Positions 12,384-21,843 of a stretch of DNA of 32,000 nt are shown here, piece by piece; the stretch's first letter is position 1; every line of letters begins with the position of its first letter. The notes under the pieces are model-generated. The model worked only from the letters and a program-made list of their open reading frames with translations, made no database searches and was not told where the DNA came from. Source of the stretch: an uncultured archaeon (GTDB taxonomy: Archaea > Asgardarchaeota > Lokiarchaeia > Sigyniarchaeales > Promethearchaeaceae); the NCBI GenBank assembly GCA_964426185.1, contig CAYRPF010000003.1, forward strand, positions 14,243 to 46,242, read 5' to 3'. The position numbers and the translations under genes are program-made.

Positions 12384-13298
12384 ATGGCGGATTCAAATTT
12401 AAAAATTGCATTAATCGGGTTAGACAATGCAGGAAAAACTTCAATTATACGTACACTTAACCGAACTTTTAATATTAAAGGAAAAATCACGCCAACTAAA
12501 AGTGTTGAACGGACTACTTTCACCCTTTTCTCTCATAAAGGTAGCATTTGGGATTATGGCGGCCAACAAAGTTATAGAAGTGATTATCTTGAAAACCCTG
12601 ATCGATATTTAACCGATATTCAATATATTTTTTTTGTTGTTGATGTACAAGATGGAATTCGATTTCCCCATGCTACTGATTATTTTAAACAAGTATATGA
12701 AATTATTCATGGTCAAAACCCTTCAGTAATTGTGACTGTCTTATTTCATAAAATGGATCCAGAGATATCCGATAGTATAGAGTTAAATAAAAGTATAGAT
12801 CGAATTTCATTAGAATTTCAGCATATCGTTGAGAATAATGAAATTGGTTTTTATAGAACATCCATTTATGATCCTATATCTCTACTTAATTCCGTCTCAC
12901 TTCCAATTCTTGGCAATCAACCGATCTACAATATGATTTCAATGTTATTGGCTGAATTTGCGATGAGTCATTCCATTGAATATATCGCCGTTTTAGTGAA
13001 TGAACTATTTGAATTGGGGTCATTTCGATTGAAATCTTCAAAAGAAAATTTCTTACAAGCATCTCGTGATTTTTATTATCAAGTTACCGCTTCAAAGAAT
13101 ATATTACAATCCGGTGAATATGATGTTAAGGGATATAAATTTGTGATTGTAAATAGAAATGTGTTAGATTATAACTATTGCTTAAACTATGCTCATCCAA
13201 TTGGTCAATTAGAGAATTTACCTTCTAAAGAAGAACTCCGAGGGCTTTTTCAAGTTATTAATGAAAAAATAGAAGAATTTCATCCGAGCTTATTTTAA
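12384..13298 (+). CDS. Arf/Rag-like small GTPase with a C-terminal roadblock/longin-like domain
   Basis: G1 GLDNAGKTS, G2 TPT, G3 WDYGGQ, G4 HKMD, G5 TSIYD, plus about 125 extra alpha/beta residues. Confidence 0.88.
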   Translation: MADSNLKIALIGLDNAGKTSIIRTLNRTFNIKGKITPTKSVERTTFTLFSHKGSIWDYGGQQSYRSDYLENPDRYLTDIQYIFFVVDVQDGIRFPHATDYFKQVYEIIHGQNPSVIVTVLFHKMDPEISDSIELNKSIDRISLEFQHIVENNEIGFYRTSIYDPISLLNSVSLPILGNQPIYNMISMLLAEFAMSHSIEYIAVLVNELFELGSFRLKSSKENFLQASRDFYYQVTASKNILQSGEYDVKGYKFVIVNRNVLDYNYCLNYAHPIGQLENLPSKEELRGLFQVINEKIEEFHPSLF

Positions 13299-19578: not shown

Positions 19579-20247
19579 TTAATCCCGTTGCTGTTTTAAT
19601 TTCTTAATTTCCGCTTCTAGATCATTTATTTCTCCTTCAAAGGATGCCCCTCCAGGAACTGAAGGAAGCGCTTCACGCGTGTTAATTGAAAGTTGAGCAT
19701 CCACTTCCGCCAATGCGTTGTCCACTTCTTCGTCAGTAACGCTGGTTGCTGAGCTATCTTCCGAAAGTTCTAATTGTGTATTGACTTCTGAGAATATTGC
19801 ATCCATATTTCCAAACCCTAAATCCAACTGACTTAACATGTTTGAAATTTCGGGAGCTTTCACACTAATTTGAAGTTCTCCCAAAACCCCTGCGATATCT
19901 TTCGCCACTCCGGTAAAATCTCCGATAGCTTTTGCTTGTTCTAACTTGAATTGAACTCCATCTAAACGGACCCGAAAATTTTCAATTGAGTGAACCCATT
20001 TTTGGAATTGCAGATGATTTTTCATATGAAGCCGACTTCCGGGTATGTCACCCGATTCTCGTCTTTGGATTGCTTTTTTTTTTGCTAACTTTCCTTTCTG
20101 TTCCATCTTAACTACTTGTCGTTGAAGTCGCTTATTAAAAATTTTAAGACTGGTGATGGTTTTTCGTAAAGGGTCAATGTCATCCTTTTTTTTATAACCT
20201 CCAGATAACCACGCTGTAAATTTCTTGAGACTGCCCAATTTGTTCAC
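19579..20247 (-). CDS. ESCRT-III (Snf7 family), Vps2/24/46 (CHMP1-like) class; start probably TTG 20238
   Basis: LKIFNKRLQRQ..KME.....KKKAI....GD..GSRLH..N...RLDGVQFKLEQA aligns by eye with CHMP1/Did2. Acidic helix TDEEVDNAL, LPSVP, terminal DLEAEIKKLK. SD-like GGAAGTGA 5 nt before the TTG. Confidence 0.9.
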   Translation of the reverse strand: MNKLGSLKKFTAWLSGGYKKKDDIDPLRKTITSLKIFNKRLQRQVVKMEQKGKLAKKKAIQRRESGDIPGSRLHMKNHLQFQKWVHSIENFRVRLDGVQFKLEQAKAIGDFTGVAKDIAGVLGELQISVKAPEISNMLSQLDLGFGNMDAIFSEVNTQLELSEDSSATSVTDEEVDNALAEVDAQLSINTREALPSVPGGASFEGEINDLEAEIKKLKQQRD

Positions 20248-20420
20248 TTCCGATGATAAATCTTACTAAATTGAATTATTAAATTAATATATTTAATATA
20301 AAGTAAAAGGTGAATTCCCTTAAAAAACTCTTAGGAGTCCAATCTCATTTTGAATATCTGAAGCAAACATTCTTTTTTCTTAAATTCATTTATAAGATAG
20401 AAACACATCAAAGAAAGGTG

Positions 20421-21095
20421 ATGGCAATCGGAACTTTAAAAAAATTGGTTGATTGGTTAAACGGTGATGATGATAGTAACAATGTATCTTCTTCTCCTCA
20501 TTCTGTGTCTCCTCGGATTAAAATAAAAGTTTTTAACAAGCGTCTGGCCCGAATGATATCTAAAATGGAAATTCAAGAAGCGAGGAACAAGAAAAAGGCT
20601 CAAGAAGCTCTGAGCAACGGTGATAAAACTGGGGCTCGAATTTACATGAAAAATTCTTTACAATATCGAAAATGGGCTCACGCAACTGAAAAATTTAAGA
20701 TGCGAATGGAGGGAGTGGAAATGAAATTAGATCAAGCCAAGATGATTTCCGATTTTTCAGGTGTGGCGCAAGATATCGTAGGCACACTGCGGGGATTACA
20801 ACAGCAAGTAAAAATGCCAGAAGTCAGCAAGATGTTATCTCAGCTAGATATGGGATTTGGGAAAATAGATGCCGTTTTATCCGAAACTTCAAGCCAACTG
20901 GAATTGAGTGATGATGCTTCTTCCACGGCAGTCTCAGAAAAAGAAGTGGATGAAGCTTTAGAAGAAGTCGATTTAGAATTGAGCGCCAATTCATTAACAG
21001 CACTTCCTGAAGTACCCCAAATGCAAGAAAAAGATGTTAGTATTGAAGATCTGGAGCAAGAAATTAAAAAGTTGAAAGAAAAAAATAAAATATAA
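20421..21095 (+). CDS. ESCRT-III (Snf7 family), Vps2/24/46 (CHMP1-like) class, paralogue of the adjacent gene
   Basis: Aligns without gaps to 19579..20247 over about 165 aa at roughly 55% identity (hand count). Homology starts at MAIGTLKKL, so the start is placed at ATG 20421 rather than 20310. Confidence 0.9.
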   Translation: MAIGTLKKLVDWLNGDDDSNNVSSSPHSVSPRIKIKVFNKRLARMISKMEIQEARNKKKAQEALSNGDKTGARIYMKNSLQYRKWAHATEKFKMRMEGVEMKLDQAKMISDFSGVAQDIVGTLRGLQQQVKMPEVSKMLSQLDMGFGKIDAVLSETSSQLELSDDASSTAVSEKEVDEALEEVDLELSANSLTALPEVPQMQEKDVSIEDLEQEIKKLKEKNKI

Positions 21096-21342: not shown

Positions 21343-21843
21343 ATGAATTTAACAGAAACGTTTATCAAAATACGAGAAAGTAAAGGGGATTCTCTTGCTG
21401 AAGAATATTCCAATAGAAAAAAATGCGAAAAATTGGATCTCCAAGTTGAGAGCCTCAGCATGAGTTTACAGATGGAATTTAGCCGTATTCAAGGAAGTTC
21501 GCTACATCAGCTTCAATCAAATTCAATTGGGGATCATATTAGGGATATTGTTGAAGATGGAGTGAATGATATCATAACAACTATTAATAAACGGCCTATC
21601 GTTTTCAAATCCTATTTGGAGATTTTATATCAAAATCTTCAAACTTTCTTCTCACCTGAAGCAAATCAAGTTTTTTATGAAGTTCAGCAACTTCATCTTA
21701 CTTATAATTTCAATCAAATCGCATGGAAAATAAAGGATTTCGATTACCAAACCATCATTCGTATTTTGAAATGTTTAATAATTGGAAATGTGCTGCGACG
21801 CTACAACCGCCGGAAATTTATTCCTGGTAGTTGCTATACATGA
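21343..21843 (+). CDS. Hypothetical helical protein (166 aa) ending GSCYT
   Basis: ATG with SD GGAG upstream and TATA-like TATAAATA at about 21279. Ends TGA-TAA. Confidence 0.75.
   Translation: MNLTETFIKIRESKGDSLAEEYSNRKKCEKLDLQVESLSMSLQMEFSRIQGSSLHQLQSNSIGDHIRDIVEDGVNDIITTINKRPIVFKSYLEILYQNLQTFFSPEANQVFYEVQQLHLTYNFNQIAWKIKDFDYQTIIRILKCLIIGNVLRRYNRRKFIPGSCYT

Follow-up and report, generated by a model that had tools for sequence, protein, structure and literature searches.

The two divergently transcribed Snf7-family genes in this window (the whole 32,000-nucleotide stretch that was analysed, taken from contig C3 of a 3.26-Mb, 92%-complete assembly) were found to encode A-type ESCRT-III proteins, here called A1 and A2, and comparison with related genomes indicated that they descend from an old duplication inside one Lokiarchaeal family. 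We judge it somewhat probable that the two duplicates act as late-acting, co-assembling subunits of the cell's one ESCRT-III/Vps4 machine.

The genes lie in divergent open reading frames at 19579..20247 (minus strand) and 20310/20421..21095 (plus strand). A1, the slow-evolving paralogue, was placed at 19579..20238 on the minus strand (219 aa with TTG 20238 as the start, 222 aa with GTG 20247), and A2, the faster-evolving one, at 20427..21095 on the plus strand (222 aa from a probable ATC start at 20427, or 224 aa from ATG 20421). A 261-aa reading frame opening at GTG 20310 was considered as the true A2 and rejected, its extension having no counterpart in orthologues. By BLASTP, A1 and A2 were identical at 109 of 219 positions (50%, E = 5e-74), and the gap-free part of the alignment gave 53.8% identity over 186 aa (shuffled controls: mean 7%, maximum 14.5%). 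A sequence-only reading made beforehand had counted about 55% identity over about 165 aa by hand, and this count proved exact, since the computed identity was 55.2% over the best gap-free 165-aa stretch. The same reading had described two divergent Snf7-family genes about 180 bp apart, and the measured gap was 173 bp when counted from GTG to ATG, and 188 bp for the preferred starts (TTG 20238 and ATC 20427). No ORF in the window matched the Vps4, ESCRT-I, ESCRT-II or ubiquitin families, as that reading had also stated, and the neighbouring genes were of a housekeeping kind (an ABCE1-like ATPase, a PfkB kinase, a THUMP/ThiI-like protein, a methyltransferase, an S8 subtilase and a Gtr1/RagA-like GTPase).

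Genome-wide, a copy inventory yielded four Snf7-like genes, namely A1, A2, a third paralogue (A3) and one B-type gene; because the assembly is 92% complete, a further ESCRT-III gene could be missing from it. Both members of the pair exceeded the Pfam Snf7 (PF03357) cut-off of 27.3 bits (A1, 40.3 bits; A2, 41.2 bits) and scored 39.5 and 43.6 bits in a six-frame search of the genome with the same model, while NCBIfam CdvB models matched them weakly (27 bits against equivalog cut-offs of 350-370). Single-sequence searches of the PDB matched CHMP1B, Vps24, CHMP3 and CdvB. A family profile built from 22 Lokiarchaeal relatives matched CHMP1B at 2.6e-18, CHMP2A at 8e-13, Vps24 at 6e-12 and CHMP3 at 1e-10, with CHMP1A matched as well (1e-18 to 1e-10); against B-type chains it reached 5e-5 for Loki Vps20/32/60 and 0.04 for yeast Snf7, the exception being Heimdall ESCRT-IIIB, the single B-type that scored well (1.8e-12). 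Run against 1.84 billion representative proteins, the profile collected 1669 relatives, the best 150 of which include clusters named CHMP1 (Neobodo) and Vps24 (fungus), alongside Snf7 proteins of Odin and other Asgard archaea. In the AlphaFold model of A2, a short N-terminal helix precedes a long hairpin, after which come three shorter helices and one at the tail (helices at residues 31-65, 69-109, 113-141, 173-192 and 208-222; hairpin pLDDT 77-92). In a Foldseek search of the PDB with this model, the top 38 rows were ESCRT-III superfamily chains, mostly at a probability of 0.94-1.0 with two at 0.77-0.80; the TM score rose to 0.67 (closed IST1), every E-value lay above 0.01, and the best fold matches were CHMP1B/IST1, CHMP2A-CHMP3 and CdvB structures. 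The first 110 residues are basic in both proteins (pI 10.6 in A1, 10.1 in A2) and the remainder is acidic (pI 4.05 and 4.19, respectively). A1 and A2 are A-type (Vps2/24/46, CHMP1-3-like) ESCRT-III proteins, the class to which both had been assigned from the sequence.

The phylogeny agreed with this assignment. A tree of 88 rows and 222 columns was inferred with IQ-TREE (LG+C20+F+G4 PMSF) and rooted on eight Lokiarchaeal B-type proteins; eukaryotic CHMP2 and IST1 were absent from its references. The A and B classes were split at 100/100 with the pair on the A side, so that neither copy grouped with Vps20/32/60. Every A1, A2 and A3 sequence fell in a single clade (100/99) nested among single-copy Lokiarchaeal A genes, within which the A2 core clade was recovered at 96/85 and the A1 clade, A3 included, at 92/91; A3 itself formed a long branch within A1 (100/100). 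The eukaryotic CHMP1 and Vps24 sequences made up another clade (100/96), which joined non-Loki Asgard proteins (100/99) apart from the Lokiarchaeal A clade. Because the pair is nested in the Lokiarchaeal ESCRT-IIIA clade and the eukaryotic A-types stand elsewhere, the tree indicates that A1 and A2 arose from a duplication in archaea, within a single Lokiarchaeal family and separately from the eukaryotic CHMP1/2/3 split, and the independent archaeal duplication proposed from the sequence is thereby borne out. The label "CHMP1-like", however, stands as a description of best-hit similarity only: a specific grouping of the pair with eukaryotic CHMP1 to the exclusion of CHMP3/Vps24 was not found in this tree, in which the two copies together are orthologous to all the eukaryotic A-types present.

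A1 and A2 are neighbours in 10 of 14 species-level genomes of the family, including those of Lokiarchaeum ossiferum and Promethearchaeum syntrophicum MK-D1. In Harpocratesius (3 genomes) and Lokiarchaeum (2 genomes) the copies stand head-to-head with 130-190 bp between them; in Promethearchaeum (4 genomes) they are also head-to-head but have a gene of about 2 kb between them, and in one further, fourth genus they are co-directional, 75 bp apart, and branch first in each clade. The distribution across these four genera indicates that the duplication predates the divergence of Harpocratesius, Lokiarchaeum, Promethearchaeum and the fourth genus. Since the copies of the co-directional genus branch first in each clade, the pair probably began in tandem and took its head-to-head form through a later inversion, an order of events reconstructed from the branching. 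Elsewhere in the family, one genus has a single A copy, none was found in one 80%-complete genome, and one genus (g4) carries a more divergent tandem A pair. The g4 pair was examined as a product of the same duplication and rejected, an AU test against joining its second member with A2 giving p = 0.014 for a group that had been named after seeing the tree. Weak matches of the C-terminal half to ORFs of about 1480 aa in related genomes were treated as spurious, the one inspected being an SMC-like coiled-coil protein. Flanking genes common to this genome, H. repetitus and L. ossiferum comprise the methyltransferase, the THUMP protein, the PfkB kinase and a 166-aa orphan. The sister family has one A gene, 32-42% identical, that stands head-to-head with Vps4-Vps25, with EAP30 adjoining, and the B-type gene is single-copy in both families. 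It looks as though, in the family studied here, the A gene moved out of the Vps4 cluster and was duplicated, the pair now being the standard A-type set.

The copies share one architecture. All retain the basic N-terminal and acidic C-terminal halves, an N-terminal G-x-L-K-K...W-L helix, an invariant L-P within ALP(S/E)VP and an L-x3-[IL]-x2-L-[KR] tail. The MIM2-like proline motif reads ALPSVP in A1 (19651..19668, minus strand; its L and P columns are invariant in the family alignments) and ALPEVP in A2 (21000..21017, plus strand; from the translation and the family alignments). The MIM1-like C-terminal helix is INDLEAEIKKLKQQRD in A1 (19582..19629, minus strand), with the pattern L-x3-I-x2-L-K in the translation and its columns conserved across the family, and IEDLEQEIKKLKEKNKI in A2 (21042..21092, plus strand), read from the translation and alignment and coinciding with the model helix at residues 208-222. 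Relative to the MIM1 consensus (D/E)xxLxxRLxxL(K/R), the pair keeps the spacing L-x3-[IL]-x2-L-[KR], but the Arg is replaced by Glu. The genome's own B-type protein carries a similar MIM1-like tail, and the motif is therefore no class discriminator in this genome. The A1 and A2 clades carry different fixed residues at no more than five alignment positions, and thus there is no clear sign of a specialised A1/A2 hetero-interface; a complex prediction on the A1 and A2 cores scored 0.14 (mark 0.32), which weighs neither for nor against binding.

An SD-like GGAAGTGA lies 5-6 nt upstream of TTG 20238, likewise in the complete same-genus genome of Ca. Harpocratesius repetitus (G001), and translation of A1 from this codon gives the conserved N-terminus Met-Gly-Ser-Leu-Lys-Lys. 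For A2, an ATC directly precedes the conserved Gly codon in all three Harpocratesius genomes and MK-D1, where it stands 5-8 nt after an SD-like GGTG or GGAAGG, and in one Harpocratesius genome (G002) the stretch from the preceding stop codon to this ATC is free of in-frame ATG, GTG and TTG codons. Because the ATC and its SD-like context are conserved and G002 is without a canonical upstream start, A2 translation probably begins at AUC, 20427. The divergent intergenic region shared by the genes (20239..20426, 24% GC) is presumed to hold both promoters. Orthologous spacers measure 133-182 bp in this genome, Ca. H. repetitus, G002, G006 and Ca. Lokiarchaeum ossiferum. Comparison of orthologous spacers revealed a conserved core, CCCTTAAAAAACTCTTAGGAGTCCAATC (20317..20344), consisting of a TATA-like run and an unknown element, which is near-identical in this genome and Ca. 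H. repetitus and recognisable in G002, G010 (Ca. Lokiarchaeum ossiferum) and G006. No copy of the core at ≤2 mismatches was found elsewhere in the genome, including upstream of B, A3 and Vps4; the element occurs at the A1/A2 locus alone and therefore gives no sign of a common regulon. A shared promoter is, moreover, not required for the pair, because MK-D1's genus has a gene between the copies and one genus has them co-directional.

A1 and A2 have evolved at markedly different rates. Synonymous sites were saturated even within Harpocratesius (dS between this genome and Ca. H. repetitus), and dN for the same comparison was 0.037 for A1, 0.162 for A2, 0.167 for A3 and 0.049 for B. Identity to the Ca. 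H. repetitus orthologue was 97% for A1 and 75% for A2. All four genes are under purifying selection, A1 being about as constrained as B and A2 changing about 4 times faster than A1. The very unequal rates (dN 0.037 vs 0.162) lend support to an alternative in which the copies are subfunctionalised and do not co-assemble, each forming its own polymer downstream of the same B subunit in a different process (e.g. division vs vesicle/protrusion scission), like CdvB1/CdvB2 in Sulfolobus. The relaxed adjacency in two genera is in keeping with this alternative, as is the repeated A-type duplication in the order (the g4 tandem pair, a second f4 type and A3), which suggests easy functional splitting. 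We nevertheless regard it as unlikely, if still worth taking seriously, because adjacency has been kept wherever the pair occurs despite saturated synonymous divergence, and A1 and A2 are about equal in length, carry the same motif set and differ at very few clade-distinguishing positions. That same domain and motif architecture, together with purifying selection on both copies, would also suit redundant dosage duplicates with the same function, retained merely to raise the amount of A-type protein. This explanation is improbable, however, since the two orthologous groups have remained apart in four or more genera, at just 50% identity and with no trace of homogenisation, the rates and start codons of A1 and A2 differ, and purely redundant copies are rarely retained in the long term.

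The remaining ESCRT parts were located throughout the assembly. A single Vps4 with MIT, AAA and Vps4_C domains was found on C14, adjoining Vps25-like and EAP30/Vps22-like genes, and no ESCRT-III gene stands beside this Vps4/ESCRT-II cluster; the pair on C3 is thus outside any Vps4/ESCRT cluster, as the sequence-only reading had held. The B-type gene, on C51, matches the solved Loki Vps20/32/60-like chain 9fn1_U (E = 2e-40), Vps28 is on C1 and ubiquitin on C28, and a search for an Ist1-like gene returned no match in this genome and was blank in control genomes too. A3, a 238-aa paralogue on C22, matches Snf7 at an E-value of 5e-4 only and is 28-31% identical to A1 and A2; it is a fast-evolving A-type seen only in Harpocratesius among the genomes searched. 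No cluster-type A gene was present in this 92%-complete assembly. ESCRT parts are therefore spread over at least six contigs (C1, C3, C14, C22, C28 and C51), and in this genome a place outside the Vps4 cluster is the rule, so that it does not single out the pair. The least probable of the explanations considered is an A/A' module that remodels membranes on its own, apart from the canonical ESCRT-IIIB/Vps4/ESCRT-II pathway. The pair does lie far from the Vps4, ESCRT-I, ESCRT-II and ubiquitin genes, but this distance says little where all ESCRT parts are scattered. The canonical pathway, moreover, would have no other A-type gene to draw on among those found, both proteins retain the MIM-type tails by which Vps4 is expected to grip them, and a single Vps4 carries MIT and Vps4_C domains. 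The "distinct module" put forward from the sequence accordingly found no support: with a lone B-type gene, a lone Vps4 and no A gene of the cluster type, A1 and A2 resemble the A-type set of the one system. On the same inventory they most likely both serve a single ESCRT-IIIB/Vps4 pathway, by homology with the systems described below.

For the favoured reading, that the duplicates co-assemble late in one ESCRT-III/Vps4 machine, we envisage the following course. The pair would stand in for the single A gene that lies beside Vps4 in the sister family, and A1 and A2 would be transcribed together from the shared divergent control region of about 180 bp. The single B-type filament would recruit both proteins to the membrane, which their N-terminal amphipathic helix and basic helical hairpin are expected to bind; there A1 and A2 would probably co-assemble, and Vps4 would recycle them through the MIM1-like C-terminal helix. 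Homology with the Asgard and eukaryotic systems already characterised suggests that the B-type filament brings in A-type subunits, which increase membrane curvature and are then recovered by Vps4 (PMC11804906, PMC11791191, PMC7240154). A1 would be the strongly constrained core subunit and A2 a modulating partner, likely less abundant in view of its roughly fourfold faster change and its probable weak AUC start. Co-assembly itself is plausible, the pointers to it being lasting adjacency, the shared control region, equal architecture and the precedent of eukaryotic A-types. A bolder form of this reading is possible but doubtful: A1 and A2 might form an obligate heteropolymer within an independently evolved multi-subunit late ESCRT-III, with four subunits in Harpocratesius (B, A1, A2 and A3), in which the ratio of the two would be set by the shared divergent promoter and weak starts (TTG for A1, AUC for A2).

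The family that holds both well-studied cultured Lokiarchaea has two A-types and Harpocratesius has three, against the minimal picture of one A and one B subunit, and expansion of late-class paralogues has therefore taken place inside archaea as well. The presence of two A-types bears on the interpretation of experiments with MK-D1 or L. ossiferum proteins, and the pair gives a ready-made case in which to ask why A-type subunits tend to function in pairs. The advance is incremental, because two A-type copies were already listed for MK-D1, and its additions are modest: A3 in one genus, the A1/A2 rate asymmetry, the lost Vps4 linkage and the probable AUC start.

The closest known system is that of MK-D1, for which "CHMP4, CHMP1A, CHMP1B, VPS4" have been named and expressed in HeLa cells (Naripogu et al. 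2025, bioRxiv 10.1101/2025.11.01.685982). The pair is thus in part an already described complement, with MK-D1 listed as having "CHMP1A/CHMP1B", while the synteny, age and origin of the MK-D1 pair are not described in that work (10.1101/2025.11.01.685982). MK-D1 has orthologues of A1 and A2 (72% and 58% identical) in the same two tree clades and likewise one B-type gene ("CHMP4") and one Vps4; unlike the present locus, its A1 and A2 are separated by the gene of about 2 kb, and it has no third paralogue. Because MK-D1 gives just two A-type matches, its "CHMP1A" and "CHMP1B" are probably QEE17875.1 and QEE17873.1/.2. We found no paper naming the MK-D1 or L. ossiferum accession numbers or locus tags, and the MK-D1 and Harpocratesius accessions were looked for in, and absent from, the text supplements of Makarova et al. 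2024, who say merely that Asgard archaea have "fewer paralogs" than eukaryotes (PMC10936438). Published accounts give Loki and Heimdall ESCRT-III two subunits, an A and a B, whose genes cluster with those of Vps4 and ESCRT-II (PMC11804906, PMC11791191). In these systems, ESCRT-IIIA of Heimdallarchaeota AB_125 comes into play once ESCRT-IIIB has acted and shapes membranes into tubes (Souza et al. 2025, PMC11804906), and "CHMP1-3" of Loki GC14_75 (KKK42122.1) modulates CHMP4-7 tubes (Melnikov et al. 2025, PMC11791191). The canonical Asgard ESCRT-IIIA proteins of AB_125 and GC14_75 have the same class and architecture as A1 and A2, but they are encoded by one A gene, whereas this genome has two (three with A3) away from Vps4. 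A1 and A2 are, furthermore, only 28-42% identical to single-copy Lokiarchaeal A genes.

Among eukaryotes, CHMP2A-CHMP3 (Vps2-Vps24) and CHMP1B-IST1 (Did2-Ist1) are paralogous A-types that co-polymerise and recruit Vps4 through MIM1. Such heteropolymers provide the best eukaryotic sequence and fold matches to the archaeal pair, but the duplications were independent; the eukaryotic MIM1 Arg is Glu in the archaeal pair, and co-polymerisation is known for the eukaryotic pairs and plausible for the archaeal one. The CdvB, CdvB1 and CdvB2 proteins of the Sulfolobales are archaeal ESCRT-III paralogues with divided roles and a dependence on Vps4 (CdvC). CdvB proteins are without MIM1 (PMC7240154), and the Sulfolobales set belongs to a different lineage and arose by a different duplication from that of A1 and A2. 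Should A1 and A2 indeed form an obligate heteropolymer, archaea would have arrived by convergence at an equivalent of CHMP2-CHMP3 or CHMP1B-IST1.

Besides the head-to-head pair in the window, formed by the slow-evolving minus-strand gene A1 and the faster-evolving plus-strand gene A2, the source genome carries a third A-type ESCRT-III paralogue, A3, which encodes 238 aa on the plus strand of another contig (C22:7352-8065, equivalent to L061:1501-2214) and is flanked by genes for an HD hydrolase and an ROK kinase. In the tree, A3 was placed on a long branch inside the A1 clade (support 100/100), and among the genomes searched it was confined to the three Harpocratesius genomes and two metagenomic representatives; the copy in Ca. 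H. repetitus is annotated as 'hypothetical'. Purifying selection acts on the gene (dN/dS about 0.12), and its predicted product retains both an LPDTP motif and a MIM1-like tail. The same contig holds a 29-aa fragment that is 79% identical to the A3 N-terminus (C22:6488-6574, equivalent to L004:559-645), and beside it lies a partial copy of the HD-hydrolase gene that neighbours A3 (L004:163-465); together they appear to be what is left of a segmental duplication at this locus.

Both members of the head-to-head pair seem to begin at weak start codons. A1 starts at TTG, while the start of A2 is probably ATC, as judged from the start region (window 20421-20429) compared with its orthologous counterparts in L009, L010 and L011: in four genomes an SD-like GGTG precedes a conserved ATC, which is directly followed by the Gly of the A2 N-terminal helix, and in one of these four there is no canonical in-frame start upstream of the ATC. 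The weak starts may set the A1:A2 subunit ratio. Downstream of A2 on the plus strand lies a 166-aa ORF of family F6 (window 21343-21843) with no Pfam match; it is conserved in Ca. H. repetitus, again downstream of A2, while L. ossiferum has its counterpart near the pair. A gene for a Gtr1/RagA-type small GTPase (window 12384-13298, plus strand; Pfam E 1.5e-19) is located 6 kb from the pair and is preceded by a 541-aa ORF for which no family match was found.

Elsewhere in the source genome, the Vps25-like ORF called from ATG spans 190 aa, whereas the Vps25 proteins of the sister family measure 293-299 aa. The interval between this ORF and Vps4 (C14:28474-28816, in L007) looks like Glu/Lys-rich open coding sequence, and the genome's own Vps25 probably extends beyond the ATG ORF at its N-terminus. 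On contig C51, the single ESCRT-IIIB gene has directly downstream of it a minus-strand ORF of at least 437 aa (L001:3-1313), truncated at the edge of the L001 sequence, that carries a P-loop GTPase-like motif, GRAGSGKN, at its start.

An N-terminal Met-Gly is shared by most A-type ESCRT-III proteins of Lokiarchaea, and N-terminal acylation is possible, as a lead only. The genome encodes a 362-aa protein (contig C31, L104:763-1848, minus strand) whose best eight PDB sequence matches were all N-myristoyltransferases (E about 1e-3), with human NMT2 aligning over residues 21-267 and a Pfam NMT score at the cut-off (24.6-25.2 versus 25 bits). The residues after Gly2 in these ESCRT-III proteins do not match the preference generally described for eukaryotic NMT.

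Extra A-type ESCRT-III copies also occur in other Lokiarchaeales. Genus g4 (L042; G005:C109) has a tandem pair of A-type genes that are co-directional and arose separately, and family f4 (L059/L047) has a second A-type form of ~220-260 aa with a Gly/Ser-rich N-terminal insert, as well as two B-type genes; ESCRT-III gene duplication is recurrent in the order. In the sister family f3 (L044, L048, L049), the single ESCRT-IIIA gene and Vps4 lie head-to-head, Vps25 comes next after Vps4, and a convergent EAP30 gene follows, an order that is probably the ancestral arrangement.
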